Source of the DNA: Anderseniella sp.
GTDB lineage: Bacteria > Pseudomonadota > Alphaproteobacteria > Rhizobiales > Aestuariivirgaceae
Direction: 5' to 3'
Length of the DNA stretch: 24,000 nucleotides
Assembly: GCA_030626025.1 (NCBI GenBank)
Contig: DAOUPT010000002.1
Coordinates: forward strand, 45,118 to 69,117
The notes under the pieces were generated by a model that was given only the letters and a program-made list of their open reading frames with translations, was not told the DNA's origin and did no database searches. The position numbers and the translations under genes are program-made. Below are positions 3,930 to 23,977 of this stretch, one piece after another (position 1 is the stretch's first letter; each line of letters starts with the position of its first letter).

Positions 3930-4101
3930 TAGAGTAGCGTCCTCCCTGAAAGACTGATGCAGCTTTATAATCTTGATTTCGAATAGGGTGTGCTGCAATA
4001 GACACAAACTGTTGATTCCTTTAAGCCTGTTGTCAATAAAATTGTTTGATTTTGCGAGAATTTCCTGTACTAAATTATCAAAACCCACAAAACCACACAA
4101 A

Positions 4102-4878: not shown

Positions 4879-5007
4879 GGGGGACGCCGGACGATTGAAG
4901 TTGCATCTTTGGCGTTTCAGTTTTATATAACGAGCATTCCCATCCATTTTCAATTTGGTTACACTATTCGCAGAACCGGGATAAAGGTTCTGAAAAGGAG
5001 AAAACTC

Positions 5008-5754: not shown

Positions 5755-5761
5755 GGCCTGT

Positions 5762-5857
5762 CTCCCAAAAGTGGGCACCGGTTTTGGGATAAAGACATGC
5801 GTAAAAACAAAGACTTAAAGCATGTCACATGAATCTCAAAAAAGGAGCCATGCTTTA
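5762..5857. repeat. Two-hairpin intergenic element resembling a short dispersed alphaproteobacterial intergenic repeat family
   Basis: Hairpin 1 is CCCAAAA (5764-5770) with TTTTGGG (5782-5788). Hairpin 2 is TAAAGCATG (5816-5824) with CATGCTTTA (5849-5857). The core string GTGGGCACCGGTTTTGGGATAAAGACATGCGTAAAAACAAAGACTTAAAGC resembles, from memory, a motif seen in many copies between genes in Rhizobiales and Rhodobacterales genomes. Confidence 0.35.
5796..5857 (-). terminator. Candidate intrinsic terminator of the SDR gene
   Basis: On the minus strand, the 9-bp stem UAAAGCAUG/CAUGCUUUA begins at the SDR stop codon. It is followed 2 nt later by UCUUUGUUUUU. The stem is AU-rich and the loop is 24 nt, so this is only moderate support. 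Confidence 0.3.
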
Positions 5858-6658
5858 GCTCTTAATCGGTACCGTATAATTCAGCGGCAGGCGGCCACCA
5901 TCAGCATAGATTGTCTGACCGGTGATATAACTGGCGTCTTTGGACGCCAGAAACGCTGCAATAGAGGCAATCTCTTCAGGCTCGCCAATTCGGCCAAGAG
6001 GCGTACGTGACATAATACGATCGTTGGCTTCCTTATCATTGGCAACCGCTTTGAGAATATCCGTCATAATACTGCCCGGACCAATGGCATTAACGCGAAT
6101 TCCGTGTGGAGCCAGCGACAGCGCCATAACTTTCGTCAATTGAGCAACACCGCCTTTGGAAATTGTATAGGGCACCTGTGTCGGGATCGCCAGAACAGCA
6201 TTAACCGACGACATATTGATGATAGTACCCGGATTTTCGCCATCTGCTTCAAGCTGGGCAACCATCTGACGGGCAACCGTTTGGCCAACCAGAAAAGCCC
6301 CTTTCAGATTAACCTTGATAACCCGGTCAAAATCTTTCTCGGAAATATCGAGAAAATCACCCCCGATGATAATCCCGGCATTATTGACCAAAATATCGAT
6401 TCTGCCGTGCATATCCACCACCGCAGCCACCATATTGCGCACATCAAGTTTTTTACCCACGTCACAATGGATAAAGGAAGCATCACCACCTTCGGCCCGT
6501 ATTGCCTCGCAAGAAATTTCCCCCTCGCTCTCATCAATATCGGCAATAACAACTTTGGCCCCGTCTCTGGCAAAACGCTCGGCGCAAGCAAGGCCAATAC
6601 CCTTGGCACCGCCGGTTATAACGGCAATTTTTTCAGAAAGAGACTTGGATTCCACCAT
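5855..6658 (-). CDS. Short-chain dehydrogenase/reductase (SDR) family oxidoreductase
   Basis: 267-aa ORF with the Rossmann motif TGGAKGIGLA, an NNAG motif (LVNNAGII) and the catalytic S...YxxxK (SSVNA...YTISKGGV). These are features of a classical SDR. Confidence 0.9.
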   Translation of the reverse strand: MVESKSLSEKIAVITGGAKGIGLACAERFARDGAKVVIADIDESEGEISCEAIRAEGGDASFIHCDVGKKLDVRNMVAAVVDMHGRIDILVNNAGIIIGGDFLDISEKDFDRVIKVNLKGAFLVGQTVARQMVAQLEADGENPGTIINMSSVNAVLAIPTQVPYTISKGGVAQLTKVMALSLAPHGIRVNAIGPGSIMTDILKAVANDKEANDRIMSRTPLGRIGEPEEIASIAAFLASKDASYITGQTIYADGGRLPLNYTVPIKS

Positions 6659-6760
6659 TTTTAGTTCCGCTCATTTGTTATCAGCCCGCCCCGGAATGAC
6701 CTGTTCATTTTTTTCAAAACGACCTTAATTCAATGAGCAGGTAAATGTAAAGATGTACCC

Positions 6761-8467
6761 TCAGCTCTTTGCTCTACCCTTTGCCCTGCCCTTTGGTCTT
6801 CCTTGTGAAACCACTTTTGACAGTAAAATCACCGGCACCAGACCAATCAGCACAATGGCCAACGCCGTCGGGGCACTTTCTTCAAACTGGTCGAGAGAAA
6901 CCAGCGTATAAACATGGGTGGCCAGAGTGTCGAAGTTGAACGGACGCAGAAGCAATGTCGCCGGCAACTCTTTCATCGCATCGACAAACACCAGCAGGCC
7001 GGCAGTGCCGATGGCTGAACGCAACAGCGGTAGGTGGACTTCGCGCAGCACCATGCCTTTTGTCCGGCCCAATGAACGGGCCACCGCATCAAGATTTGGC
7101 GACAGCTTGGCAAAACCGGACTCCAGCGCCCCATTCGAGATCGCCATAAAACGCACCACATAGGCAAAAACCACCGTCCCGGCGGTCCCCGAAATCAGCA
7201 GACCGGTGGTGATGCCAAAAACGCTTGAAGATATCACCCCAACCACACCCTCAACATAAGACAGAAACACCAAAATGCCGATGGCCAGCACAGTGCCGGG
7301 CACCGCATAACCAATTGAGCTAATCCGCACCAGACCATTCAACAAACCAGATGGGTTGGCCCGTTTCGCTGAGGTCAGAAAAATACCAATCAGCACCGCC
7401 ACAACAGCTGCCGCACTGGCCACCAGCACCGAATGCCCGACATTGCGCCAAAAACTCTCATCAAGAAAAACCTGCCAGTGCAACCCTACCGCTTTAACCA
7501 GCACACTTGCAGGCAATACAAATCCCAGCAAAATCGGCATCGCGCAAGCAATTGTCGCTGCCATTGCATAAAACCCTTTGAGCCTGGTTGCTGAAATATT
7601 ACGATACCGCCCTGTGGTCTGATAAAACTGTTGCCGCCGCCGACTAACCCGCTCAACCCACAACAACAGCACCACAAATATCAGCATCACACAGGCAATT
7701 TGCGCTGCACCGGGCAGCGAGCCGCGCTCAAGCCAGGTGTTGTAAACTGAAAAAGTCAGCGTATTAACGCCAAAATGCTCCACCGCACCAATGTCATTCA
7801 GACACTCCATCAGGGCCAGTGTCGCGCCCGCCACCAGTGCCGGACGGGCCAGCGGCAGGCCAACGTTCCAGAAAACACCCCAATGCGACCGCCCCAATGT
7901 CCGGGCCACCTCAAGGGCGCAAATCGACTGGCCGACAAAACTGGCCCGCGCTGTCAGATACACATAAGGATAAAGCACAAATGACATGACAAATATCGCC
8001 CCGCCCAGCGAGCGGATTTCAGGAAACCAGTAATCGCGGGCCGACTGCCAACCAAAAAACCCGCGCAATGTCGTCTGCATCAGACCGGAATAATCCCAGA
8101 TTTCCGTATAACTGAAAGCAGTCAGATAAGTCGGCATCGCCAGCGGTATCAGCGACAGCCAGACAAACACCTTGCGACCGGGAAACCGGTACATGGTCAC
8201 CAGCCAGGCCGAACTGGCCCCGATCGACATGGTCAGCAAACCAACCCCGATCATCAGCAAAACCGTATCGCTCAAGGCCCGCGGCAACACCGTTGCCAGC
8301 AGGTGCGGCCAGATATTGTCTTGCGCCGACAACGCCACCCCGAACAATGCCAATATAGGCCCGACAACAATCAATGCCACCAGCACCACCCAGCCCAAGG
8401 CTCCCGGCGTAATCCGCGATAATCTCAATCGTTTTGAAAAACTGTTATGGCTTGCAACTTCGCTCAT
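6761..8467 (-). CDS. ABC transporter permease with two tandem domains, Fe(III)/thiamine (FbpB/AfuB/ThiP)-type
   Basis: 568-aa ORF with about 12 hydrophobic segments and two permease cores. Its length and duplicated architecture fit FbpB-like iron(III) permeases. The C-terminal tail GRPKGRAKGRAKS is encoded by a short near-tandem DNA repeat (CCCTTTGC-like units at 6761-6800). Confidence 0.8.
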   Translation of the reverse strand: MSEVASHNSFSKRLRLSRITPGALGWVVLVALIVVGPILALFGVALSAQDNIWPHLLATVLPRALSDTVLLMIGVGLLTMSIGASSAWLVTMYRFPGRKVFVWLSLIPLAMPTYLTAFSYTEIWDYSGLMQTTLRGFFGWQSARDYWFPEIRSLGGAIFVMSFVLYPYVYLTARASFVGQSICALEVARTLGRSHWGVFWNVGLPLARPALVAGATLALMECLNDIGAVEHFGVNTLTFSVYNTWLERGSLPGAAQIACVMLIFVVLLLWVERVSRRRQQFYQTTGRYRNISATRLKGFYAMAATIACAMPILLGFVLPASVLVKAVGLHWQVFLDESFWRNVGHSVLVASAAAVVAVLIGIFLTSAKRANPSGLLNGLVRISSIGYAVPGTVLAIGILVFLSYVEGVVGVISSSVFGITTGLLISGTAGTVVFAYVVRFMAISNGALESGFAKLSPNLDAVARSLGRTKGMVLREVHLPLLRSAIGTAGLLVFVDAMKELPATLLLRPFNFDTLATHVYTLVSLDQFEESAPTALAIVLIGLVPVILLSKVVSQGRPKGRAKGRAKS

Positions 8468-12322: not shown

Positions 12323-12892
12323 ATGCGCCCGTCCAAACGCGATGAACTGGTCGAAAAGGCCCTGAAAACTTTCTACCGCAACGGCTTCCACGCCACCGGC
12401 ATGGACATGCTGGCGGCTGAAACCGGCATTTCCAAAACCTCCATGTACAAACACTTTGCCACCAAGGAAGATTTGATACTGGCGACACTAAAACTGCGTG
12501 ACGAAAAATTTCTCGACTGGTTTGTCAGCCGTCTGGAACAACTGGCTCCAACACCATCAGAACAATTGATCGCCATTTTCGATGTGCTGACCGAATGGTT
12601 TGCTCAACCCGAATTTGCCGGTTGCATGTTCATCAAAGCCTCAGCCGAATACCAGCACCCCGGCCACCCCATTCATGTCCAGTCAGCCGAACACAAACGC
12701 CTGCTGCTCGACCACATCACCAAAATTGCCAAAGCCGCCGGAACGATCCATCCAAATAGTACCGCCCGCCAACTTATGCTCCTGATCGAAGGCGCCACGG
12801 TAACAGCCCATTTTGGCCACACGAGCAACCCGGCCGGGGATGCAAAACGGGCGGCGGAAAACATGTTGACCAGCACAAGGTCAAAAGAATAA
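12323..12892 (+). CDS. TetR/AcrR family transcriptional regulator
   Basis: ORF 12302..12892 trimmed to the ATG at 12323, with GGAG upstream. The N-terminal TetR HTH is ALKTFYRNGFHATGMDMLAAETGISKTSMYKHFATKEDL. Confidence 0.9.
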   Translation: MRPSKRDELVEKALKTFYRNGFHATGMDMLAAETGISKTSMYKHFATKEDLILATLKLRDEKFLDWFVSRLEQLAPTPSEQLIAIFDVLTEWFAQPEFAGCMFIKASAEYQHPGHPIHVQSAEHKRLLLDHITKIAKAAGTIHPNSTARQLMLLIEGATVTAHFGHTSNPAGDAKRAAENMLTSTRSKE

Positions 12893-12901
12893 ACAGGCCG
12901 G

Positions 12902-13792
12902 ATGAAAAATAGAAATCCCCTCATCAACTGGTTGTTTCTCATCATCGCTGGTGCTGGCTGGGGAGGATCAATCAGCCTGACCAAAATCGCCGCTGATTCC
13001 GGTTACCACCCGATAACACTTATTTTCTGGCAACTGATCATCGCCATTGCAATTCTGGTGGCATGGTTGATGGCAAATCGCATCCGCTTGCCAACCAGCC
13101 CGAAACACCTGATTTTTTATACTATCGCTGGCATCCTGGGAACCGCCCTGCCCGACAGCCTTGCTTATTTTATCGCCCCTCATTTACCAGCCGGTATAAT
13201 CTCGATCGTCTACGCCCTTGTGCCAATGATGACTTTCACCCTCGCCGTTATTCTCAGAAGCGAACGATTTGAACTGACCCGGTTTGTCGGTGTCCTGCTC
13301 GGCCTCAGTGCTATTTTGTTGCTCGTTGCACCTGCTTTTGACCTGCAACCAACCAGCAGTCCCTTATGGGTGTTTTTGCTGGTACTGGCCTGTTTTTGCT
13401 ACTCGATTGAATCAATTTTTGCCATCTTCTACATGCCCGCAAAAGACCATCCCCTAACCATACTGACCGGCATGAGCATCGCTGCTATAATCATCATCTT
13501 GCCAATCATGCTGGCAGCTGGCATCCCCTTTTCCATTCAGAATTTCCTTGGGAAATCCGAATGGGCACTCATTCTCTCATCATTTATTCACGTTGGTGCC
13601 TACGCTGGCTATCTCTATCTCATCCGCCACACCGGCGCAATTTTCGCCAGCCAGATTTCCTACGTCGTCACCCTGTCCGGCGTTCTATGGGGCATAATAA
13701 TCTTCACAGAATCCCACAGCCTGTGGACCTGGGCCGCATTGGCCACCGCAATGGTCGGTTTGGGTTTGGTGCGCCAGCAGCAGGAAAACTAA
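12902..13792 (+). CDS. EamA/DMT-superfamily transporter
   Basis: 296-aa ORF with about 10 TM segments. It starts 9 nt after the TetR stop, so it is probably co-transcribed. Confidence 0.85.
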   Translation: MKNRNPLINWLFLIIAGAGWGGSISLTKIAADSGYHPITLIFWQLIIAIAILVAWLMANRIRLPTSPKHLIFYTIAGILGTALPDSLAYFIAPHLPAGIISIVYALVPMMTFTLAVILRSERFELTRFVGVLLGLSAILLLVAPAFDLQPTSSPLWVFLLVLACFCYSIESIFAIFYMPAKDHPLTILTGMSIAAIIIILPIMLAAGIPFSIQNFLGKSEWALILSSFIHVGAYAGYLYLIRHTGAIFASQISYVVTLSGVLWGIIIFTESHSLWTWAALATAMVGLGLVRQQQEN

Positions 13793-13942
13793 GCACCTTT
13801 CTTCTCACAAACCGCCCACCCGCATCTACTGCCCGATCCGACAAATGCTTGTGGCTGTCTGCACATTTCACAGCAAGGAGTGAAAACAAGACTATTGCGC
13901 GCATTATGCGTTTAAGTTATTCTGCCTAGGCGGAGGTATCGC

Positions 13943-14401
13943 ATGAGACGTACTCACCAGATTGTCGCCAGCTTTGTTGCGATGCTCCTCCTTTGCCTAA
14001 GCTTGGCCACTCCTTCAAACGCACAGAACGAGGCTTTCGAGGCCGCCGAGCAGATCCCCGCCAGCATTCATAGTGCCATATCAGGTGGTTTTTGGACGGC
14101 TGGCAAGGATGAAGGGTTTTTCCGTGTTGTCGTTATCGCGGGCGGTGTCGAGCATGTGTCGCACCGTCTCTATATCCAGTGGTTGAGGAGCGATGCAAAG
14201 ACACAGAGCTATGAGTTGGTCCGTACTGTGAACGTGACAGAACTCAATATGGGACAGGGTTATCTTCTGGATGTGAAAACCTCATTTGGCGACTTCAATT
14301 CCTTCAAGATTAACATCACTGCAAAAAGCCTGCGCGTCAAAACCAAAAAATTCGCGATCACAGCCAAAGGCGACGGGAAATATGTAATTCAGTCCCGATA
14401 A
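13943..14401 (+). CDS. Hypothetical secreted protein (152 aa), no family recognised
   Basis: GGAGG Shine-Dalgarno 7 nt upstream. The Sec signal peptide is MRRTHQIVASFVAMLLLCLSLATPSNA|QN. The mature part has an alternating beta-strand-like pattern (FFRVVVIAGG, RLYIQWL, YELVRTVNV, YLLDVKT, FKINITA, KFAITAKGDGKYVIQ). Confidence 0.65.
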   Translation: MRRTHQIVASFVAMLLLCLSLATPSNAQNEAFEAAEQIPASIHSAISGGFWTAGKDEGFFRVVVIAGGVEHVSHRLYIQWLRSDAKTQSYELVRTVNVTELNMGQGYLLDVKTSFGDFNSFKINITAKSLRVKTKKFAITAKGDGKYVIQSR

Positions 14402-14431
14402 AAACTGCTTCCGAGCAACAGGGAGAGAAAC

Positions 14432-16063
14432 ATGGCGAAGCTTTTTGGATTTTTTCTAACCATTACGTTGCTTGCATTCGCGGCGGCCGCACAGGCGCAA
14501 GCACCAAAAACCTTGTCACAAGGACCGGACTTTTCAGATATCGAAAAAGGTCAGCTTACAAGCGGAAAACTTCCACTTCACGAGAAGGAAGAATTAGACG
14601 TTTTAAGAAAATACAATCCGGCTCGCGCCCAAAAATTGGAAGCTCAAATAAAGCGAAAAATCCCTTCAATTGACCAAGTTTCGCAGTCCTTAAAAAATGT
14701 AGTAAAAATATTTAACCGATTAGATGCAGAGGAAAAACTCTACCGGGATGGAATCCTTAACAAAAAAGCACTTGTCAGGTCAAAGGTAGAGGCACAAATA
14801 GTATTACGCTTGTGGCTTTCTGCGCAATACAAATACGAAGACGATCTTGAAGAGAAGTATGGATCCCCATCAAAAAAATTCAAAAGAGCGATGCAAAAAT
14901 TTGAATCGATAAAGGGTGCATGGTTAAAGAAATTCTACAAAGCTCGCGATAAAAAACGGGAAAAAATGGGTTTGCCTAAATGGAAATTCGACATGATCTA
15001 TAACAAATCCGACCCACCTGAAAGTGAAAACAAAACACCATCACCCAAATCGGCCGATAACAAGCTACCAAAAAACCCGAAGGAGGACATTGAGAAAAAC
15101 AAGGCCAAGCGGGAGGAAACGAATAAGCCGCGCAGGCAGGTAGACCGCAAAGGAACTTCCAAACCCAGATCAGAAGAAGACCGTATTTTGGAGGCTGGCA
15201 AGGACGGAATGTTGACCGGCAAAACCATCAAACTCTCCGACTTGGAAGGATGCGGAGGTGTTCTTTTTGTCAATGCCGATGTAAAATTGATGTGGGGGCG
15301 CACATCAACTCCCTGTCCCGAACTTACAGGCGGGCGTGTGGCTAGCCAAGCCGATTATTATGCCCACTGCAACTCATTCGAAGACTTTAGCGGACCTTGC
15401 GGGCCACCGGGGCCCAGTACTGAAAGATCGGGAAGGTATAATGGTGTCCATGGGATGCCGCTTGGTGTCTTTTGTCTTGCGCTCCATTACAATATTTTAT
15501 CAAATAAGGGGGATGTGTATAACAACACGGTCATGCAGGGTAACCTTATGTCAATATTCAAATACGACAACGGCAGCCGCAAGCTGAGTTGTTTTTATAT
15601 TACCAAGGATCAGTTGAAGTCCTTATATGAACAATTTAAAAATGCCAAAAAAGGCACTACTCCCACCAAGCCCGTTGCAGGGACCAAGCCAAAAAAAGAT
15701 TGTAAGTCTAGTGGCGGCCTCACCGGTGCCATGAATTGTGTGACAAAACGGATCGAAGGTGCCGGCGGAAAAAATACAAAACAGCCAGAAAAAAACCCGG
15801 CCTCTGCGAGTACGACTGATCCAAAGACCGGCATCACTACAAAGTCGGTGAAAAACCCGGATGGAACTCGCACGATCACTCGGACCGATAAGAATGGTAA
15901 AGTTTTATCCGAACGAACTGTCGGGAAAACCTCGACCTCTGCGAGTATGACTGACCCGGAGACCGGCATCACCACCAAATCGGTGAAAAACTCGGATGGA
16001 TCGCGGACGATAACAAGAACAGACGCCCGTGGAACTGTTCTTTCCAGGGGAAACGTACGGTGA
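14432..16063 (+). CDS. Hypothetical secreted multidomain protein (543 aa): Lys-rich helical region, K/P/E-rich linker, 8-Cys domain, C-terminal tandem repeat
   Basis: GGGAGAG Shine-Dalgarno upstream. The signal peptide is MAKLFGFFLTITLLAFAAAAQAQA|PK. The long ORF lies in a locally AT-rich stretch where random ORFs would be short. It contains eight Cys residues, at 274, 295, 313, 323, 348, 387, 424 and 436. I recognise no catalytic motif. Confidence 0.75.
   Translation: MAKLFGFFLTITLLAFAAAAQAQAPKTLSQGPDFSDIEKGQLTSGKLPLHEKEELDVLRKYNPARAQKLEAQIKRKIPSIDQVSQSLKNVVKIFNRLDAEEKLYRDGILNKKALVRSKVEAQIVLRLWLSAQYKYEDDLEEKYGSPSKKFKRAMQKFESIKGAWLKKFYKARDKKREKMGLPKWKFDMIYNKSDPPESENKTPSPKSADNKLPKNPKEDIEKNKAKREETNKPRRQVDRKGTSKPRSEEDRILEAGKDGMLTGKTIKLSDLEGCGGVLFVNADVKLMWGRTSTPCPELTGGRVASQADYYAHCNSFEDFSGPCGPPGPSTERSGRYNGVHGMPLGVFCLALHYNILSNKGDVYNNTVMQGNLMSIFKYDNGSRKLSCFYITKDQLKSLYEQFKNAKKGTTPTKPVAGTKPKKDCKSSGGLTGAMNCVTKRIEGAGGKNTKQPEKNPASASTTDPKTGITTKSVKNPDGTRTITRTDKNGKVLSERTVGKTSTSASMTDPETGITTKSVKNSDGSRTITRTDARGTVLSRGNVR
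15800..16060 (+). repeat. In-frame 135-bp (45-aa) tandem repeat, about 1.9 copies, at the 3' end of the 543-aa ORF
   Basis: Copy 1 is 15800-15934 (ASASTTDPKTGITTKSVKNPDGTRTITRTDKNGKVLSERTVGKTS). Copy 2 is 15935-16060 (TSASMTDPETGITTKSVKNSDGSRTITRTDARGTVLSRGNVR). My hand alignment gives 30 identical residues out of 42 aligned positions. Confidence 0.9.
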
Positions 16064-16107
16064 GCGCGCGGCACCGGTTCAACCGGAAGACGCTAGATAG
16101 AGAGGAT

Positions 16108-16455
16108 ATGATTTTGTTGAAGACGATACTATTCCTGCTGGTCCTTGTTTTTATCTCGGGACCTGTACTTGCGGCCCAGAGCAAAATGATCTGCAAGAAT
16201 CCCGGACGAAGCTACCTTGCGACATTTGACGAAACGGCCAACACATTCCGGGTTCAAGCGGCAGGCGCGGATAACTTCTATCAAATCGAGCGCGTTGAGA
16301 ATACCGGGAACGGGCTGATCGTGCGCGGAAAGACGATCAAGGGCGGCCCTGATTTCGTAGCCCATCTCGGTGAGAAAAAGAGCATCGAGTTCATAGACGA
16401 CGGCCAGGTCATACAGACAGATCTCTGCAAACAGGCCCGTCCGGCTGTGAAATGA
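16108..16455 (+). CDS. Hypothetical small secreted protein (115 aa, 2 Cys), no family recognised
   Basis: ORF 16060..16455 trimmed to the ATG at 16108, with GAGAGGA 3-9 nt upstream. The signal peptide is MILLKTILFLLVLVFISGPVLA|AQ. The mature ~93 aa are beta-rich, with one Cys near each end (MICKNPG... and ...TDLCKQ). Confidence 0.6.
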   Translation: MILLKTILFLLVLVFISGPVLAAQSKMICKNPGRSYLATFDETANTFRVQAAGADNFYQIERVENTGNGLIVRGKTIKGGPDFVAHLGEKKSIEFIDDGQVIQTDLCKQARPAVK

Positions 16456-16502
16456 TCAATATCCGCTTATGATGCCATAACCTTCAAGCGCCTCTTACGG
16501 CC

Positions 16503-17747
16503 TCACTCTTCACAAGCTTCCACAACATCCTCATATGTCCGCAAACCTGTCTGCGGGGCGTTGACCAGAACCGCCATGTTGCCCGGCAGATGTTTGTTGT
16601 CCAGCATCCGCTTGTGGGCTTTGGGGATGTCGCGCCAGGAGAATACTTCTGACATGCACGGATCAATCCGCCGGCTGACCATCAGTTTGTTGGCTTGCGC
16701 TGCTTGTTTCAGGTGAGCAAAGTGAGAACCCTGCACACGTTTTTGATGCATCCAGACATAGCGGGCATCCATGGTCAGATTGTAGCCTGTTGTACCAGCA
16801 CAAAAAACCACCATGCCACCGCGCTTGACCACCAAACAGGATACCGGAAAAGTTGCCTGACCGGGATGTTCAAACACCGTATCAACACTAACGCCCTTGC
16901 CGGTGATATCCCAGATCGCTTTACCAAAAGCGCGCGCGCCCTTGGCCCATGCGTTATATTCATCGGTATTAACTGTTGGCATTTCGCCCCAGCAATCAAA
17001 ATCCTTGCGGTTAATGACGCCTTTGGCGCCAAGTGACATCACAAATTCACGCTTGTCTTCATTGGAAATCACCCCGATGGCATTGGCCCCGGCCGCCGCA
17101 CACAGCTGCACCGCGAATGAGCCAAGTCCGCCTGAAGCCCCCCAGACCAGCACATTATGACCGGGCCGCAAAATATGCGGGCGGTGGCCGAACAGCATCC
17201 GGTAGGCGGTGGCCAGTGTCAGCACATAACAGGCCGATTCTTCCCAGGTCAGATGTTTGGGTCGCGGCATCAATTGTTGCGCCTGCACCCGGCAAAATTG
17301 CGAAAACGATCCATCGGGTGTTTCATAGCCCCAAATCCGCTGGGTTGAGGAAAACATCGGATCACCGCCATTGCATTCTTCATCATCACCATCATCCTGA
17401 TTGCAATGGATCACCACTTCATCACCAACGTTCCAGCGTTTGACCTTGGAGCCGACGGCCCAGACAATGCCTGATGCATCAGAACCGGCCACATGAAACG
17501 GATGTTTATGCACATTCAAAACCGAAATCGGTGTCCCGAGCGCCGCCCACACGCCGTTATAATTAACCCCGGCGGCCATCACCAGCACCAGAACTTCATG
17601 GCTATCAATTTGCCAGGTCGGCACCACCTCGACCTGCATGGCATCTTGTGGCTGACCATGACGGTCCTGACGAATCGCCCAAGCATACATTTCTTTGGGG
17701 ACATGGCCCAAAGGTGGTAATTCACCGATTTCGTATAGATCTTTCAT
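16503..17747 (-). CDS. ccr: Crotonyl-CoA carboxylase/reductase (ethylmalonyl-CoA pathway)
   Basis: The 414-aa ORF is nearly colinear with Rhodobacter sphaeroides Ccr as I remember it: KDLYEIGELPPLGHVPKEMYAWAIR, HEVLVLVMAAGVNYNG, HCNQDDGDDEECNGGDPMF, RIWGYETPDGSF, VWGASGGLGS (NADPH site), WMHQKRVQGSHFA and PGNMAVLV. Confidence 0.92.
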   Translation of the reverse strand: MKDLYEIGELPPLGHVPKEMYAWAIRQDRHGQPQDAMQVEVVPTWQIDSHEVLVLVMAAGVNYNGVWAALGTPISVLNVHKHPFHVAGSDASGIVWAVGSKVKRWNVGDEVVIHCNQDDGDDEECNGGDPMFSSTQRIWGYETPDGSFSQFCRVQAQQLMPRPKHLTWEESACYVLTLATAYRMLFGHRPHILRPGHNVLVWGASGGLGSFAVQLCAAAGANAIGVISNEDKREFVMSLGAKGVINRKDFDCWGEMPTVNTDEYNAWAKGARAFGKAIWDITGKGVSVDTVFEHPGQATFPVSCLVVKRGGMVVFCAGTTGYNLTMDARYVWMHQKRVQGSHFAHLKQAAQANKLMVSRRIDPCMSEVFSWRDIPKAHKRMLDNKHLPGNMAVLVNAPQTGLRTYEDVVEACEE

Positions 17748-17910
17748 CTTTATTCCCTGCTAAATGAGCTTGTCTGATTTTTTATTATGCGCTGCACTAT
17801 ACACAATCACAAATCTTATTGCACTGCAACAAAAGTTATAGATTTCTCTATCAACAAATTAGTAAAAAATTTAGTAAAAGTTGAGGTTTAACCATGACTG
17901 AAACTTAAAA

Positions 17911-17939
17911 TTAACAAACCCTCCCCTTGACCCTATAAT
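17911..17939 (+). promoter_or_regulatory. Sigma70-like promoter candidate (TTAACA-N17-TATAAT)
   Basis: TTAACA is at 17911-17916 and TATAAT at 17934-17939, with an exact 17-nt spacer. It sits 44 nt upstream of the small-ORF ATG, inside an AT-rich region. Confidence 0.35.
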
Positions 17940-17982
17940 TTCCTGACTAATTGGGCGGCAGCAACTGGAGAGAGGTGTCGAT

Positions 17983-18333
17983 ATGGAAGGACTAATGAGT
18001 TTTTTGGGACTAGCAACGAGCGGGCGCACAGTGACGTCAACGTTTAGTGGTTTGTTTGATATTTCGGACACAACATTGATCCTTGTTGTCGGTTTGTGCT
18101 TCCTTGGCACCAATCTGGTCAGCAATATTACTTGCCGCAATTCTCCGGTTGAGTATGCCACAACATTTTCCTGCCTGTTTATTGGCGCATTGATGGCCAA
18201 CGCGTTGATTGCAGAAATAGAACTACCGGTAACCAGCGACCTCGCCCAATCAGCAATAACAGCAAATATCGGCATGACTTGCGCCGCCTTGCTGGTAATG
18301 GCACTTTTTGGCCGCGAAGGTCATTTGGAATAA
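17983..18333 (+). CDS. Hypothetical small membrane protein (116 aa, about 3 TM)
   Basis: GGAGAGAGG Shine-Dalgarno 8 nt upstream of the ATG. There are three hydrophobic segments (TTLILVVGLCFLGTNLV, TTFSCLFIGALMANALIA, ITANIGMTCAALLVMALFG). It uses several codons that are rare in the neighbours (CTA, ATA, GGA), so coding status is uncertain. The 134-aa ORF antisense to it looks less gene-like. Confidence 0.45.
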   Translation: MEGLMSFLGLATSGRTVTSTFSGLFDISDTTLILVVGLCFLGTNLVSNITCRNSPVEYATTFSCLFIGALMANALIAEIELPVTSDLAQSAITANIGMTCAALLVMALFGREGHLE

Positions 18334-18402
18334 TCGCCTTACAAATAATCTGGCCAAAAGTCTTGGTTGCACTGCAGCATTTTCCATGCTTTGCTGTGTT
18401 TC

Positions 18403-20406
18403 ATGACCAAGATAAAAAAAGATACAGCCCAAAAAGACAGAGCCCAAAAAGACAGGCCGTGGATTTTCCGCACCTATGCCGGACACTCCACGGCCAAAGC
18501 CTCAAATGAGCTTTATCGTGCCAATCTGAAAAACGGCCAAACCGGGCTTTCGGTCGCTTTCGACCTGCCCACCCAGACCGGCTATGACAGCGACCACGAA
18601 CTGGCCCGCGGCGAAGTCGGCAAGGTCGGTGTGCCGGTTTCCCACATCGGTGATATGCGCCAACTGTTCGACAACATCCCGCTTGAACAGATGAATACCT
18701 CATTGACCATCAATGCCACAGCGGCATGGTTGCTGGCGCTTTATGTAGCGACAGCACAAGAGCAGGGAGCCGACGTATCAAAGCTCACCGGCACCACCCA
18801 GAACGATATAATCAAGGAATATCTGTCACGCGGTACCTATGTTTTCCCGCCCGATCATTCCTTGCGACTGACCACAGATACGATCAACTGGAGCTATCGC
18901 AACCTGCCAAAATGGAACCCGATGAATGTCTGTTCTTATCACTTGCAGGAAGCAGGCGCGACACCCGAGCAGGAATTGTCGTTCGCGCTGGCCAACGCCA
19001 TCGCCGTGCTTGACGGGGTAAAAGCCTCCGGTCTTGTATCTGATGAAGACTTCCCCAAAGTTGTTGGCCGCATCAGCTTTTTCGTCAACGCCGGCATTCG
19101 CTTTGTCACTGAACTGTGCAAAATGCGCGCCTTTACTGAATTATGGGACGAGATCACCCGTGAACGTTACGGCGTTGAAGAAGAACGCTACCGCCGTTTT
19201 CGTTATGGTGTGCAAGTCAACTCCCTCGGTCTGACCGAACAACAACCCGAAAACAACGTCTACCGCATCCTGCTTGAAATGCTCGCCGTGGTACTGTCCA
19301 AAAACGCCCGCGCCCGCGCCGTGCAACTCCCGGCCTGGAACGAGGCGTTGGGCCTGCCCCGCCCTTTTGACCAGCAATGGTCCCTGCGCATGCAACAGAT
19401 CGTTGCTTATGAAACCGACCTGCTGGAATACGCCGATATTTTCGATGGCTCCAAAGAAATCGAACGCAAGGTTGAAGAGCTCAAGAACGGTGCCCGGACC
19501 GAGTTGCATAAGCTTGAAGACATGGGCGGTGCCGTGGCCGGTATTTCCAGCGGCTATATGAAAGAGCAATTGGTCATCTCAAACACCGCCCGCCTGAAAG
19601 CCATCGAAACCGGCGAGACCACGCTGGTTGGCGTTAACGCTTATCAGCAAGGAGAGCCCTCACCGCTGGCCACCGGCGATGGTGAAGCTATCCTGACCGT
19701 GCCCGACCATGTGGAATTTGACCAGATCAACAACCTCAAAGCCTGGCGCAAACAACGCGATAAAAACGCCGTAGCCGAGGCGCTTAGCGCCCTCAAAGCT
19801 GCCGCTGCTGGCGGCGATAACATCATGCCGCCGTCCATCGCCTGCGCCAAAGCCGGCGTGACAACCGGTGAATGGAGTGCCATTCTGCGCGAAATCTTTG
19901 GCGAGTTCCGTGCCCCGACCGGCGTTGGCGTAGTTTTTTCCAGCACAGGTGACGACATTGAAAAAATCCAAAAAGACGTTGCGGCGCTGGCCAAAAAACT
20001 GGGCACCAACCCCAAATTACTGGTCGGCAAACCGGGCCTTGACGGCCACTCCAACGGTGCCGAACAAATCGCCGTCCGCGCCCGCGAAACCGGCATGGAC
20101 GTCATCTATGACGGCATCCGCCTGACCCCGGCCGAAATCGTAAAAACCGCCATCGACCAAAAACCCCACGCCATAGGCCTGTCAATCCTCTCGGGCAGCC
20201 ATGTGTCGCTGGTCCGCGATGTCATCAACAAGTTGAAAGAAGCAGGCATCGGAAACACCCCGGTCATCGTCGGCGGCATCATTCCCGATGATGACGTGAA
20301 CGTGCTGAAGCAGTTAGGCGTGACAAGGGTTTATACACCCAAGGATTTCAAGCTGAATACGATGATGGCTGAGATTGTTAAGTTGATCGAAAAAACCTGC
20401 ACCTGA
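18403..20406 (+). CDS. ecm: Ethylmalonyl-CoA mutase (B12-dependent, fused catalytic + cobalamin-binding domains)
   Basis: ORF 18367..20406 trimmed to the ATG at 18403. DRPWIFRTYAGHSTAKASNELYRANLKNGQTGLSVAFDLPTQTGYDSDHELARGEVGKVGVPVSHIGDM matches my memory of R. sphaeroides Ecm. The C-terminal B12 domain has DxHxxG (GLDGHSNGAEQIA). It is divergent from ccr, as in Rhodobacter. Confidence 0.9.
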   Translation: MTKIKKDTAQKDRAQKDRPWIFRTYAGHSTAKASNELYRANLKNGQTGLSVAFDLPTQTGYDSDHELARGEVGKVGVPVSHIGDMRQLFDNIPLEQMNTSLTINATAAWLLALYVATAQEQGADVSKLTGTTQNDIIKEYLSRGTYVFPPDHSLRLTTDTINWSYRNLPKWNPMNVCSYHLQEAGATPEQELSFALANAIAVLDGVKASGLVSDEDFPKVVGRISFFVNAGIRFVTELCKMRAFTELWDEITRERYGVEEERYRRFRYGVQVNSLGLTEQQPENNVYRILLEMLAVVLSKNARARAVQLPAWNEALGLPRPFDQQWSLRMQQIVAYETDLLEYADIFDGSKEIERKVEELKNGARTELHKLEDMGGAVAGISSGYMKEQLVISNTARLKAIETGETTLVGVNAYQQGEPSPLATGDGEAILTVPDHVEFDQINNLKAWRKQRDKNAVAEALSALKAAAAGGDNIMPPSIACAKAGVTTGEWSAILREIFGEFRAPTGVGVVFSSTGDDIEKIQKDVAALAKKLGTNPKLLVGKPGLDGHSNGAEQIAVRARETGMDVIYDGIRLTPAEIVKTAIDQKPHAIGLSILSGSHVSLVRDVINKLKEAGIGNTPVIVGGIIPDDDVNVLKQLGVTRVYTPKDFKLNTMMAEIVKLIEKTCT

Positions 20407-20504
20407 TCAAAGTCAGGAAAACACCTATCCCCTCCACCATGCCGGGAATCTGAACCAGCCACCGCCCACCATCACGATGGCTGGTAGAAATCCCAAAAGG
20501 GCAA

Positions 20505-21053
20505 TTACCGGGTATAGGTGGCTGTAATTGTAGCTTTTGCCAGTGCATTTGAACGTGTCATAAAGCCGACTAAAGCGGCACTGGCATTTTCATCCAAATC
20601 AAGTTTTTCCGTGCTCAGGGCAAAGATAGAAAAAACATAACGATGAACTTCACCTGGAGGCGGACAAGCACCGCCAAATCCGTTTGACCCAAAATCGGTA
20701 CGTCCCTGAATTGCTTTTTTGGGCAAGCCTTTGCCACTTCCAGCGCCGCGCGGCAATGTTGTTGCTTTACTGGGAATATTGAAAACGACCCAATGCCACC
20801 ATCCAGAGCCTGTTGGGGCATCAGGATCATAGGCCGTAATAACAAAACTTTTCGTTCCAGCAGGCGCGTTGGACCATGTCAAAGAGGGTGAAATATTTTT
20901 TCCTTTGCAGCCAAAACCATTCAATACTTGTTCTTTGGAAAGTTTATGCCCTTCAGAAATATCTGTGCTCATCAGGGTAAACTCGGCGGCATTTGCTATT
21001 GTCGGCAGTAACATCGCAACGGCAACCATTGCAGATTTTGTATATTTAAACAT
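20505..21053 (-). CDS. YbhB/YbcL-family PEBP (Raf kinase inhibitor-like) periplasmic protein
   Basis: ORF 20505..21110 trimmed to the ATG at 21053, with AGGAG 6 nt upstream. The signal peptide is MFKYTKSAMVAVAMLLPTIANA|AE. It has the family motifs AYDPDAPTGSGWWHWVVFNIP and GEVHRYVFSIFAL. Confidence 0.85.
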   Translation of the reverse strand: MFKYTKSAMVAVAMLLPTIANAAEFTLMSTDISEGHKLSKEQVLNGFGCKGKNISPSLTWSNAPAGTKSFVITAYDPDAPTGSGWWHWVVFNIPSKATTLPRGAGSGKGLPKKAIQGRTDFGSNGFGGACPPPGEVHRYVFSIFALSTEKLDLDENASAALVGFMTRSNALAKATITATYTR

Positions 21054-21149
21054 GATAGTCTCCTGTATAGAATTAACAGAAAAACTATAGTCGGGGGGTA
21101 CTGATCGCACATTCCAAAATCGATCATTTGTTGTGCCGAAACGATCATA

Positions 21150-21947
21150 TCACTTAAACTTACGTCTGATTTCAATCGGAGATAGATCAAACCGGGCTTT
21201 AAAGCGGGCAGAAAACCTTGATGGGGAATTATAGCCAACATCCATGGCGATGGTTGTTATGGGGATATCAGTTGTTTGCAACATTTCCAGCGCCCTACTC
21301 ATTCGTAAATCCGTCAAAATACCGGTAAATGATGTCCCATGTGTCCTTAGTCGCCTTCGCAGGGTAGGTTCGCTAACATGTAGTTTTTCAGCTATTTTTG
21401 CGAACGTCCATTGCTGAGAAACATCATCGGAAATAAGGTGCCTGACAATTTCAACTATCGTACTAAAATTGTTATTTTTAAAAAATATGTTGTTTTCATT
21501 CAACCATACAATCAGCTCGCTGATGCGGTGGGATACAATTGTTTGAGGCACATGCAGGTCTTCCGTTATTGTATCTTTGGTACGCAAAAATGTGTTTAGA
21601 AACTCTTGCGTTGCAACGCATCCTCTTTTCTTGCCTGTTGTCGGTATAGCTTTTGAGTTAATCGCTAAGCTGGCATCAAGCAGTATAATAAATTCTGCAC
21701 GGTATAAGCCCTCTCCGTCAGGGATATTCTCAATATCAAGACTTTCTCCAGGTGAAAAAACACCAATCGTTCCTTTTTTCAGGCATTGAGGATTTTTGCC
21801 ACCGCCCACCCGCTTTTCACCGGATAGAATACGAAAAATAACAGGCTGCTTAATCCACAAATGCTTGAAATATGCACGACTGACCTGACGCACCACAGCA
21901 TACCCCGCAACAGGTTTTTGTGTATCAAGGTCTAATTTTTCCAACAA
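21150..21947 (-). CDS. AraC/XylS family transcriptional regulator
   Basis: 265-aa ORF with a TTG start and GGAGG 9 nt upstream. The C-terminal double HTH is FAKIAEKLHVSEPTLRRRLRTHGTSFTGILTDLRMSRALEMLQTTDIPITTIAMDVGYNSPSRFSARFKARF. The N-terminal domain is cupin-like. The gene is distinctly AT-rich (18/60 and 27/60 G+C in two rows I counted). Confidence 0.85.
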   Translation of the reverse strand: MLEKLDLDTQKPVAGYAVVRQVSRAYFKHLWIKQPVIFRILSGEKRVGGGKNPQCLKKGTIGVFSPGESLDIENIPDGEGLYRAEFIILLDASLAINSKAIPTTGKKRGCVATQEFLNTFLRTKDTITEDLHVPQTIVSHRISELIVWLNENNIFFKNNNFSTIVEIVRHLISDDVSQQWTFAKIAEKLHVSEPTLRRRLRTHGTSFTGILTDLRMSRALEMLQTTDIPITTIAMDVGYNSPSRFSARFKARFDLSPIEIRRKFK

Positions 21948-22036
21948 GGTAATCTGCCTCCATTTCTTCGCTACGGTGACAACTTAACACATACACTAAA
22001 CAGAAAGACGATCTTTCCATCAAAGACAGAATCCTC

Positions 22037-23146
22037 CTAGTCTCCAGCATACGGATACCCGTTCTTGTCAAATTTCCAGTCAGCAAATGCAAAAATATAA
22101 CGGGGATTGAGTTTTTTTGCGTCCAGATGCCAGGCGTTTTTGTGGTTGAAACGGATGCCGCGCATCATCACTGTCAGATCAAGCTTCCAGGCGCCATTTT
22201 CCACTCGGACAAAATACGGTGAGCATTGGCGTTGACGAACGTTGTATCGCACCACGGCATAGTCGCCTCGGGTTTTGGTGCCATCGATGGTACATTTTTT
22301 GTAGGTATTGTAGACGTTGCGCATCTGGCCTTTGGTAACCCGCCAGCTTTTCATCATCTTTTTGCTGGCATCGGTGTAAATCGACAGACTGGGATTAGCG
22401 TCATAATCGGCCATTGCCTTGAGATAAGCATCAACAACCGATTGCGGTGAATTGTTGGCAGAAGCAATATTTGAGGTCCCGTATTTTTTGGTTTTATTGC
22501 CTGCACCGATTTGCGCTGAAGTACTGGCACCGGCACCGGTAGAGACCTCTGCCTGACGATGCAACGCCGGATCAAAAGCGATATTCTTTCCAGCTTCATT
22601 ATAACGGGCAACAATCAATTCGGTCGTTGCAAGAATACCGTCGGCGATACGACTGTCACGGAAGAACGGTACCATCTGCTCACGCTCAATAAAGCTGACA
22701 AATCCATCGGTATAAGCCCCCTCAAGCGAGCGCCCGACTTCCAGCCTTACCCGGTTGGCACCTTTATCAATCACCAGCAGCAACCCGTGTCCACCACTGC
22801 TGCGCGCGCCAACTTTCAGCGCGGCAAAACGCTTGGCGGCAAACAAATTGACATCACCTGTGCTGGCAGCCGTGACAATACGATAGTCAATGTCATAAGC
22901 CTCAAGAATTTTCGCATGATAGCTGGCCAACCGCTTTTTTTGATCTTCATTGAGCAGCAAGGCACTGTCATCCAGTAAATCGCGGTGCAGCAATTTTGTT
23001 TGCTGTTGGGCAATAAATTCCCGACCGCCCCACCGGTCATAAACCCGGTACCCCATTCTGGCCGCAAGCAGCAACACCACCACCAGTATCAACAGATTTC
23101 GTTTATTTTGCAAAAGATCAGGCATCGGACTTACTTTTTTATTCAC
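22037..23146 (-). CDS. Membrane-anchored TPM-domain (TLP18.3/Psb32/MOLO-1, YgcG-like) protein with an extra C-terminal domain
   Basis: 369-aa ORF with an N-terminal TM (NLLILVVVLLLAA). The TPM-like core spans residues ~55-180 (LLNEDQKKRLASYHAKILEAYDIDYRIVTAAS...GLLLVIDKGANRVRLEVGRSLEGAYTD...ILATTELIV). A G/A/S/T-rich linker follows, then a ~135-aa C-terminal domain (22040-22450). Confidence 0.7.
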   Translation of the reverse strand: MNKKVSPMPDLLQNKRNLLILVVVLLLAARMGYRVYDRWGGREFIAQQQTKLLHRDLLDDSALLLNEDQKKRLASYHAKILEAYDIDYRIVTAASTGDVNLFAAKRFAALKVGARSSGGHGLLLVIDKGANRVRLEVGRSLEGAYTDGFVSFIEREQMVPFFRDSRIADGILATTELIVARYNEAGKNIAFDPALHRQAEVSTGAGASTSAQIGAGNKTKKYGTSNIASANNSPQSVVDAYLKAMADYDANPSLSIYTDASKKMMKSWRVTKGQMRNVYNTYKKCTIDGTKTRGDYAVVRYNVRQRQCSPYFVRVENGAWKLDLTVMMRGIRFNHKNAWHLDAKKLNPRYIFAFADWKFDKNGYPYAGD

Positions 23147-23179
23147 AGACTAGAGAGAACGGGACAGGCGCTTTATCTC

Positions 23180-23977
23180 TCAATCAAAATTCAGCTTCTT
23201 GACCGTGTCGGCTCCTTCATCGGACTTAAAGTAAGCCTTGCGATTGAAATGCCCCATCGAAGCGACCATGCTGGTCGGCATACGGCGGATGCTGGCGTTA
23301 AACGTGCCAACAGCTTCGTTAAAGCGTATGCGGGCAACGTTAATACGGTTCTCTGTACCTTCAAGCTGTGCCTGAAGCTGCTGCATTGGTTCGCTGGCCC
23401 GCAAAGTCGGATAGGCCTCGGCCGTTGCCATTATGGTGTGCATCATCTGCCCAACCCGTTTCTGGCTGGCCCCAAGCATCGAAATGTAAGTGCTGTCTTC
23501 CGGCGCTTTGCCACCAGCTTTTTGGAGCAATTCAGCGCTTTCTTTCTGAGCCGCAATCAGAGCCGCAATATCCTCGTCCAGGCCGTCATTACGTTTGGCC
23601 GTAACATTTTCCAGGGTCGATTTTTCATGCTTCAAAAATTTTGATACGGTCTCAACCAGATTAGGAATCAAGTCGGCGCGGCGTTGATAATTACTTTCAA
23701 CCTGCGACCATGCTGTGTGAATGACTTCCTCTTCTTTCACCAGACCATTATGCATCCAGCTAAAACCAATTAATGGTAGGAGTAGAAAAATTCCCACAAA
23801 AAGAATGGCAGATATTTTGTTTGTCGTAGAATCCATTGCTCCGACCTTTCCCTGATTAAATGTATCTTTGATATTTTCCACGCTGTCGATTGAGGCTGTA
23901 TCGCCCAAACCGCCAAAAACAATAAACAGCACGGCAATAACGATAATTCCCATACCGATGAGAGGCAGTAACGCCAT
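23180..23977 (-). CDS. lemA: LemA family protein (N-terminally extended; the reading frame stays open to the right edge of the window)
   Basis: The LemA core is VIHTAWSQVESNYQRRADLIPNLVETV...AYPTLRASEPMQQLQAQLEGTENRINVARIRFNEAVGTFNASIRRMPTSMVA. The ATG at 23977 is the first Met, but no stop lies upstream through 24000. An internal ATG at 23836 (GGAG 3 nt upstream) would give a canonical single-TM LemA of 218 aa. Confidence 0.85.
   Translation of the reverse strand: MALLPLIGMGIIVIAVLFIVFGGLGDTASIDSVENIKDTFNQGKVGAMDSTTNKISAILFVGIFLLLPLIGFSWMHNGLVKEEEVIHTAWSQVESNYQRRADLIPNLVETVSKFLKHEKSTLENVTAKRNDGLDEDIAALIAAQKESAELLQKAGGKAPEDSTYISMLGASQKRVGQMMHTIMATAEAYPTLRASEPMQQLQAQLEGTENRINVARIRFNEAVGTFNASIRRMPTSMVASMGHFNRKAYFKSDEGADTVKKLNFD

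Follow-up and report, generated by a model that had tools for sequence, protein, structure and literature searches.

An exported three-protein cassette of marine alphaproteobacteria with a constant frame and exchangeable inserts

In the choline-binding proteins of pneumococci and the GW proteins of Listeria, a Sec signal is followed by variable modules and by constant C-terminal beta-hairpin repeats of variable copy number, and the proteins are mosaics made by recombination. The cohesin-dockerin system of cellulosomes uses a constant duplicated C-terminal module, which is carried by varied cargo and pairs with an all-beta partner of about 125-150 amino acids (aa). Polymorphic toxins have a constant N-terminal trafficking part, a variable C-terminal toxin domain, and a downstream immunity gene that co-varies with it. 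The locus described here can be compared with each of these systems, a comparison that rests on general knowledge and not on homology. It lies in a stretch of 24,000 nucleotides (nt) from Anderseniella sp. (contig DAOUPT010000002.1, positions 45,118 to 69,117), in the following called the window, in which positions 13863-16455 are a self-contained cassette of about 2.6 kb that encodes three exported proteins, orf1, orf2 and orf3. The large protein, orf2, is a mosaic: its signal-peptide tag and its C-terminal part are constant, whereas the N-terminal and central modules between them are interchangeable, and the whole cassette is a constant frame with exchangeable inserts. As to its working, orf1 may be the partner of the constant repeat module of orf2, which in turn would display the variable modules in the envelope, and for this reading a probability of roughly 35% appears adequate.

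All three genes are encoded on the + strand, orf1 (152 aa) at 13943-14401, orf2 (543 aa) at 14432-16063, and orf3, which in the window is of the type termed type 1 below, from an ATG at 16108 to 16455 (115 aa). The open reading frames (ORFs) had been proposed in an earlier interpretation made from the letters alone, the sequence-only reading, and were found at the positions given there, as were the intergenic gaps of 30 nt (orf1-orf2) and 44 nt (orf2-orf3) and the Shine-Dalgarno (SD) strings GGAGG, GGGAGAG and GAGAGGA upstream of orf1, orf2 and orf3, respectively. The start of orf3 is ambiguous: the ATG at 16108 is only about 2 nt past the SD, while a TTG at 16114 (113 aa) has the better SD spacing and fits the homologues and the public gene call P0117, which is the window's own orf3 (99% match) called from that TTG. 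The longest mechanical ORF begins at a GTG at 16060 (131 aa). Also the Sec-type signal peptides that had been claimed for the three proteins could be recognized: in each, a basic n-region precedes a hydrophobic core with Kyte-Doolittle values of 2.5-3.8 over 10 residues, an Ala-X-Ala-type site is present, and cleavage is predicted between SNA and QN in orf1, between AQA and PK in orf2, and between VLA and AQ in orf3. A hydrophobicity scan of the mature parts of the three proteins shows no later hydrophobic segment, and with computed isoelectric points (pI) of 9.4 (orf1), 9.8 (orf2) and 8.7 (orf3) all mature proteins are basic. The signal-peptide ends of orf1, orf2 and orf3 contain no lipobox of the form [LVI][ASTVI][GAS]C, for which reason a lipoprotein identity was rejected; the Cys in the LLLCLS stretch of orf1 is not conserved in the family, where the conserved site lies between A and Q.

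Followed from its N-terminus, orf2 begins with a signal peptide (14432-14503) that carries the constant tag MAKLFGFFLTIT, which in the family has the consensus MAKFFGxxLTIT. Then comes the variable N-module (14504-14983, aa 25-184), Lys-rich and predicted to be helical or coiled-coil, with helices at residues 49-178 in the AlphaFold2 (AF2) model; in the family there are at least five unrelated kinds of N-module, or none. The subsequent linker (14984-15172, aa 185-247) is rich in Lys, Glu and Pro and is disordered in the model, with a predicted local distance difference test score (pLDDT) below 50 for residues 185-250. Inside this linker there is a constant junction, KEDIEKNKAKREETNKPRRQ (15079-15140, consensus KEDIxKxKxKREETNKxRRQ), whose DNA is 85% identical to that of a related locus, L037, which carries different modules around the junction, and conserved dibasic sites are found in the linkers of the family. 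The central module of the window is of type A (15173-15655, aa 248-408), an alpha/beta domain with six conserved Cys that the model places at residues 250-405 with a pLDDT of 55-77, and other family members have an unrelated type B, another type, or none at this position. An alignment of 17 type-A sequences has the six Cys, several Gly/Pro and the motif KY..EC as invariant positions and a few conserved hydrophobic ones, and no catalytic-type set of His, Asp, Glu or Ser is conserved in these 17 domains.

The constant C-terminal part begins with the two-cysteine motif KKDCKSSGGLTGAMNCVTKRIEGAGG (15686-15769, aa 419-446; predicted helix at 430-443), which has the consensus CKxxGGLxGAMNCVTKRIEGAG and is present in most family members, and ends with the repeat module (15797-16063), two Thr-rich beta-hairpin repeats of 44 aa with ..VR directly before the stop codon. 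The repeat consensus is SASxTDxxTGITTKSVKNxDGxRTITRTDxxGxVLSxxxV, family proteins end in ..REKVR, and AF2 predicts eight strands over residues 458-542 of orf2. In the DNA, the repeats appear as a 135-nt direct repeat (15791-15888 and 15926-16023, 81% identity). With its eight Cys and its two repeats of 44/45 aa, orf2 is indeed the large Cys-containing repeat protein as which it had been described. The copy number of the repeat ranges from one to four per protein; 56 distinct units were collected, and 26 aligned units have a mean column identity of 76%. The last repeat of each orf2-family protein is a distinct, conserved position-specific subtype (..SVANPDGSRTVTTTDKDGNVLSREKVR) with an almost invariant final Arg, and the C-terminal end of orf2 proteins may itself be recognized.

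While this part is constant, the N and central modules are 30-60% identical or unrelated between family members, and all four tested combinations of them are seen (coil with A, coil with B, beta with A, and beta with B). In minimal members, which have 191-261 aa, nothing but the signal peptide, the two-cysteine motif and the repeats is present, and even these short forms are encoded directly after orf1. One of the N-modules, at the N-termini of P0007 and P0130, is formed by a Cys unit of about 60 aa (YCxxxFG..a...C.v.t.GG) that has no Pfam match and recurs in the 617-aa partner of a distant orf1 homologue (L014, 1133-2986).

The borders between constant and variable parts become evident when the DNA of the window is compared with that of five other loci. 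A block of 79-86% identity starts at 13863-13877, about 75 nt upstream of orf1, and continues through this gene and the gap behind it into orf2, of which it includes the first 35 nt; in every compared locus the similarity ends at 14466, inside the orf2 tag. The stretch that encodes the variable N-module has no DNA similarity to the other loci, and the central domain has similarity (67%) in type-A loci only. From about 15684-15796 to 16447 there is again a similarity of 70-73%, over the repeats with their two-cysteine motif and over orf3 type 1; in loci with the other type of orf3 it does not go past 16175, where the orf3 signal peptide ends. The synonymous divergence (dS) is 0.4-0.8 for orf1 and orf3, versus saturation for orf2 in the same locus pairs. 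The constant frame thus comprises orf1 and the orf3 signal peptide and, within orf2, the tag, the linker junction and the two-cysteine motif with the repeats. The variants would have been made by homologous recombination at short constant junctions, namely the signal-peptide tags of orf2 and orf3, the KEDI..RRQ linker and the two-cysteine motif, and if this model is true, recombination junctions lie within signal peptides, which is an unusual site.

The exchange also concerns orf3, which occurs as two unrelated mature proteins behind a common signal peptide: both types have the coding part up to about 16175 in common, and hhalign aligns residues 2-26 of type 1 and type 2 and nothing further. 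Type 1, with about 90 aa in the mature form and two Cys that are invariant across the family, has 10 homologue clusters among 5.8 billion sequence clusters (58-74% identical) and is found in the window, L004, L034 and L038. Type 2 (111-116 aa, two Cys) replaces it in L001, L037 and L040, and in L020 it directly follows orf1. Neither type is present in L007, L039, L009 and L010. Of the operon-like trio that the sequence-only reading had postulated, it therefore holds that three exported proteins are encoded in one unit, but the obligate unit is orf1 with orf2, and orf3 is optional. With respect to the central module, type 1 follows type A in the window, L004 and L034 and type B in L038, and type 2 follows type A in L001 and type B in L037 and L040. 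Both L001 (6662-7240, - strand) and L040 (2497-2856, - strand), two loci with orf3 type 2, also have a gene of a small family (GWWGYDxxCPASDxGFGL..DGxASDGSGVY..RWSL) that adjoins the cassette on the opposite strand and that may be a further accessory gene.

This distribution of orf3 bears on the idea that the cassette is a polymorphic toxin-immunity system, with orf2 as a toxin whose central module is the warhead, orf3 as a periplasmic immunity protein or inhibitor, and orf1 as a chaperone or delivery factor. Such a system would well agree with the module-swapping mosaic of orf2 and the differing genomic contexts of the cassette, with the small exported two-Cys protein that is encoded immediately downstream of orf2, and with the paralogous type-A domain protein nearby in L001. 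A toxin-immunity pair is disfavoured, however, because the orf3 type is independent of the central module, with both types behind A as well as B, and because that module has no conserved catalytic residues. Moreover, orf3 is missing from four loci, a central module is lacking altogether in the minimal members, and a constant C-terminus with internal variable parts is the reverse of what polymorphic toxins have. No toxin, trafficking or immunity family was matched in Pfam, NCBIfam or PADLOC, and the 24-kb window contains no genes of type I to type VII secretion systems (T1-T7SS), of contact-dependent inhibition (CDI), or of the PAAR or Rhs type. A toxin-immunity function is thus quite improbable, and the suggestion of the sequence-only reading that an exported effector is encoded together with a chaperone and a cognate immunity protein is not supported in view of the independent orf3 types, the constant C-terminus, the minimal members and the missing catalytic residues.

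The association of orf1 with orf2 is tight. In all seven loci that were ascertained by orf2 (L001, L004, L007, L037, L038, L039 and L040), orf1 lies directly upstream with a spacing of 30-60 nt, and the cassette genes are adjacent in loci with entirely different flanks. Two computational outcomes would have spoken against the sequence-only reading, a lack of co-localization in other genomes and a confident assignment of the proteins to known families, and neither was observed. In the window the flanks are EamA and ccr, in L004 (from BMS3Bbin10) an abhydrolase gene and YjbQ, in L007 VWA and YfiO-like genes, in L034 Bax1-I and FtsX, and in L038 TPR and amidase genes; the pair is adjacent also in L037, L039 and L040, and L001 is from Hyphomicrobiaceae UBA2767. 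In the opposite direction, a repeat-module protein follows directly downstream in 9 of 15 evaluable loci that were ascertained by orf1, and it does not in the other six. The ratio of non-synonymous to synonymous divergence (dN/dS) relative to orthologues in other loci is 0.18-0.23 for orf1, 0.26-0.41 for orf3, and, where measurable, about 0.16-0.23 for orf2, and as the genes are under purifying selection and the syntenic unit is found in at least seven unrelated genomic contexts, the cassette is not a product of chance. Also, orf1 tracks the repeat module and not the central domain, because L001 encodes at 4454-5560 a protein with a type-A domain and no repeats, the sole such protein in the loci examined, and this protein is not preceded by orf1.

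It could be argued that the three are functionally independent, lineage-specific exported proteins, which are adjacent by a shared promoter and by joint movement and which form no complex. None of the genes has a functional annotation, orf3 is optional and orf1 is able to stand alone, all of which would be compatible with independence, but this does not explain why seven independently ascertained orf2 genes with unrelated flanks all have orf1 at the same close upstream position, nor why one conserved DNA block extends from orf1 across the intergenic region into the start of orf2. Also the families of orf1 and orf3 co-occur even where orf1 is only 41% identical, as in L014, which has an unrelated exported protein of 617 aa after orf1 and, just beyond, a convergent orf3 type 1 homologue. 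Functional independence of the three proteins is therefore regarded as very improbable.

The most conserved protein of the cassette is orf1, for which about 100 homologue clusters were found, all of about 151 aa and 47-88% identical. The mature protein has about 125 aa and no Cys, and the alignment contains 18 invariant residues, including E57, R61, E70, H74, Q79, W80, Y90, R94 and N102, the polar ones of which cluster in the motifs GGVEHVxHR, EGFFR and RT..ELN. An AF2 model that was based on 36 homologues reached a pLDDT of 84.9 and a predicted template-modelling score (pTM) of 0.69, and in the predicted fold a short helix after the signal peptide is followed by an eight-stranded antiparallel beta meander. 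Foldseek searches with this model against PDB and BFVD gave no match with E<0.001, and the best alignments were with two propeller-like blades at template-modelling (TM) scores of 0.3-0.49. Since the model is confident and has no structural neighbour in the PDB, orf1 is a candidate for a new fold. An outer-membrane barrel of eight strands was considered for orf1 and rejected, as there was no barrel match and no C-terminal aromatic signal. Comparison of the orf1 profile with itself gave the identity match alone and thus no sign of an internal duplication.

With such an extreme conservation and clustered invariant polar residues, orf1 could also be a small periplasmic enzyme or a binder of a metal or ligand that modifies or processes orf2 at its repeats or linkers, in which case orf2 would be a client and not a docking partner, or that acts on a substrate of its own. 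The occurrence of orf1 alone or with other downstream proteins would be in line with such a role, and the Ser/Thr-rich repeats and the dibasic sites of the linkers could be targets. Against this stands that the searches revealed no enzyme or metal-binding family or fold similar to orf1, that mature orf1 is small and all-beta and has no cofactor motif, and that a stoichiometric partner would explain the strict adjacency and the DNA block shared with the orf2 start no less well. An enzymatic or ligand-binding function of orf1 is thus rather unlikely, and the probabilities given here leave a remainder for functions not yet imagined.

To return to orf1 as partner of the repeats, this role is proposed because orf1 and the repeats are the two most conserved elements of the cassette and are also strictly linked. 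The three proteins would be exported to the cell envelope via Sec, where orf2 would act as a long, basic and flexible carrier that docks or is anchored by its C-terminal two-cysteine motif and the Thr-rich 44-aa beta repeats. Its dedicated partner for the repeat module would be orf1, as receptor, holder or chaperone, and together the two would present, on the surface of the cell or in its periplasm, the interchangeable and probably non-catalytic N and central modules, with orf3 as an optional small disulfide-bonded accessory protein. In the model, the N-part of orf2 is helical, the Lys/Pro/Glu linkers are disordered and the C-terminus forms beta hairpins, a layout that would suit an extended envelope protein. 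We infer from all this that orf1 physically binds the repeats, that the location is beyond the inner membrane, and that the role is one of binding or adhesion rather than of catalysis. A complex in the envelope or on the surface, as the sequence-only reading had considered it, may be regarded as plausible.

Several aspects weigh against the proposed partnership. The ascertainment is small, with about 20 distinct loci, many of them on short contigs, and orf1 also occurs without an adjoining repeat protein, alone in L008 and with other neighbours in L014, L015, L020, L023 and L026. The invariant residues E57, R61, E70, H74 and R94 of orf1 equally fit a ligand-, metal- or substrate-binding site. 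The AF2 model of orf2 has a low confidence (pLDDT 56.9), although its layout is nonetheless clear. Finally, the search for an outer-membrane export route or anchor gave no lipobox, no beta-signal and no secretion genes, and because no such route or anchor can be identified, a surface location is unsupported.

A bolder version of the proposal, which seems doubtful at present, is that the cassette constitutes an undescribed docking system of the Gram-negative envelope, in which orf1 is the dedicated receptor for the 44-aa-repeat module, unrelated cargo modules are swapped onto this module through recombination at the conserved junctions in signal peptides and linker, and the three proteins represent three new families. 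In such a system, orf1 and the repeats might even complete a shared beta sheet or propeller, and in its function it would be an analogue of cohesin-dockerin pairs or of choline-binding display.

That the proteins belong to unrecognized families, as had been stated, was borne out by searches that covered the three window proteins, all alignment members and the neighbours in related loci: Pfam, NCBIfam, PADLOC, PHROGs and the PDB sequence profiles give only noise, and none of the three proteins could be placed in a characterized family by a confident profile or structure match. In Pfam, the best match was DUF4478 for orf1 (15.5 bits, cut-off 25) and FKBP-like_N for orf3 (12.5 bits, cut-off 26), and there was no match for orf2. 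The NCBIfam scores for orf1, orf2 and orf3 were below the curated cut-offs, the models of PADLOC and PHROGs gave no match for cassette proteins, and PDB profile searches with orf1, orf2, both orf3 types and the repeat unit gave nothing at E<0.05. Viral contigs contained no relatives of the cassette. In profile-profile comparisons, orf1, orf2, orf3 and the repeat unit were found to be mutually unrelated, so that there is also no sequence relation between orf1 and the repeats. The lysozyme-inhibitor family MliC (PF09864) was not matched by orf3 type 1 or type 2 at E<=1. An assignment as an "undescribed system" is justified at the level of the protein families and of the locus architecture.

As regards the repeats, no sequence match to CW_binding, GW, LysM, SH3b or another Pfam repeat was found in the orf2 family beyond weak matches of Pfam CFSR (PF19079), which cover the 44-aa repeats in 9 of 16 orf2 relatives. 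The best score, 27.9 bits with a cut-off of 27, was that of the homologue P0007; the other five members that were scored individually reached at most 21 bits, with P0002, P0012, P0004 and P0006 at 14-21 bits, and the orf2 of the window had no match at E<=1 and did not reach the membership cut-off of at least 27 bits. CFSR denotes a collagen-flanked surface repeat, the profile of which has 49 positions and thus a length similar to that of the orf2 repeat, but the orf2 relatives have no collagen-like flanks, and a search for literature on the CFSR family found no paper in the library used. This likeness is taken as a lead only. Three known repeat or surface systems were considered and rejected: a Curli/Fap amyloid operon, which would have an outer-membrane channel (CsgG/FapF) and a repeat subunit rich in Gln, Asn and Gly, as there is no CsgG/FapF in the window or in related loci and the repeats are highly charged, with much Lys, Asp, Arg and Thr, a holdfast hfa operon, as there is no CsgG-like HfaB, and an ice-binding TxT array, as the Thr strands are not adjacent.

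Upstream of orf1, a promoter-like region (13863-13942, + strand) moves with the cassette and ends in the SD GGAGG. About 75 nt of it, from 13863-13877 onwards, are conserved with 79-86% DNA identity to loci with unrelated flanks, and the upstream alignment points to a putative promoter TTGCGC-17 nt-TATTCT at about 13894-13922. A scan for consensus promoters and terminators did not call this promoter, and the number of sites in the scan was no higher than in shuffled sequence. Between the presumed -35 and -10 elements there is an inverted repeat, CGCAT-n-ATGCG (13900-13910), with the counterpart GACGCA-n5-TGCGTC in L004, and this repeat could be a putative operator for some regulator. An Rfam search of 12800-17000 gave nothing credible, and a repeat scan and the annotation of the window revealed no flanking direct or inverted repeats, terminal repeats, transposase or integrase that would bound the cassette.

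The neighbours of the cassette in the window are as had been claimed, an EamA transporter gene (12902-13792) on one side and a convergent ccr gene (16503-17747) on the other, and the annotation of the 24 kb agrees with the former statement that no regulator or enzyme gene accompanies the three genes. It shows no secretion-system gene either, whether with the three genes or elsewhere in the window. The ccr product is a crotonyl-CoA carboxylase/reductase (TIGR01751, 617.8 bits, cut-off 378.55). Divergently arranged to ccr is the gene of a 679-aa MCM-like mutase with a B12-binding domain (ethylmalonyl/methylmalonyl-CoA mutase; both genes within 16503-20406), and the pair, which represents the core of the ethylmalonyl-CoA pathway, is separated by an unusually long gap (17748-18366). 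Farther away, the window has a gene for a TrcR-family cell-cycle regulator (4909-5754), which speaks for an origin of the DNA from an alphaproteobacterium, and, at its right end, a pair of LemA and TPM-domain genes (22037-23977). The G+C content, about 0.51 in the background, dips to 0.44 at 14000-15500, which is the Lys-rich variable half of orf2, and to 0.41-0.43 at 20500-22000 over PEBP-family and AraC-family genes.

In related loci, additional genes are found next to the cassette. In L001, a cluster of further unannotated genes (3667-7240) lies just upstream of the orf1-orf2 pair and includes the type-A paralogue without repeats, an exported protein of 368 aa with an N-terminal Cys-rich duplicated segment, as well as an exported Cys protein of 135 aa; possibly, related exported proteins form a larger island here. 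A leucine-rich-repeat protein of 448 aa and VWA-domain proteins adjoin the cassette in two loci (L037, 2435-5703; L007, 4125-6170), which hints at a gene neighbourhood for surface or adhesion functions that is inconsistent across loci.

The distribution of the cassette is very narrow. Among the 5.8 billion sequence clusters, orf2 has 16 relatives, and for its central domain 15 were obtained when 1.84 billion representative proteins were searched exhaustively with phmmer. The named sources are metagenome-assembled genomes (MAGs) of marine-sediment or hydrothermal Alphaproteobacteria, labelled Hyphomicrobiaceae, Rhizobiales or Alphaproteobacteria, and the cassette is thus restricted to a narrow group of uncultured marine alphaproteobacteria. 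If the proposed working of orf1 and orf2 is correct, three new exported families would be at hand, together with a new way in which Gram-negative bacteria attach exchangeable modules to a constant docking unit. Given the very narrow distribution, and as long as there is no hint at a phenotype, the cassette should be regarded as neither solved nor broadly important, but as a solid lead for work on structure and genetics.

Among known structures, oligomeric beta-propeller lectins with two-blade subunits can be compared, since Foldseek matched the eight strands of orf1 and the four strands per 44 aa of the orf2 repeats solely to runs of propeller blades, among them 6r5x ("8-bladed propeller formed by four 2-bladed fragments") and the PLL/PHL lectins. 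However, all matches have E>0.01, TM<0.5 and a root-mean-square deviation (rmsd) of 5-8 Å, and any beta meander yields such matches. With polymorphic toxin-immunity cassettes, the locus shares the swapping of modules at conserved junctions, the small downstream gene and the cassette-like mobility, but constant and variable parts lie at the opposite ends, orf3 as the downstream gene does not co-vary with the variable module, and there is no toxin, trafficking or secretion component. Like choline-binding and GW proteins, orf2 has a Sec signal, variable modules, a constant C-terminal repeat array and mosaicism by recombination, but the host of the cassette is a Gram-negative alphaproteobacterium, and a small partner, orf1, is co-encoded. 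The cohesin-dockerin pairs are similar in that varied proteins carry a constant, internally duplicated C-terminal module that goes along with a conserved all-beta partner, but there is no homology, the orf2 repeats are 44-aa beta units and not 22-aa Ca-binding helices, and orf1 is a free single-domain protein with a putative binding function and not a part of a scaffoldin. The cassette is not a member of any of the compared systems, since every defining feature that was tested failed. By analogy, the closest systems in a possible working are the modular surface proteins with constant C-terminal anchoring repeats and the cohesin-dockerin pairs, and in evolution the cassette most resembles the polymorphic cassettes.

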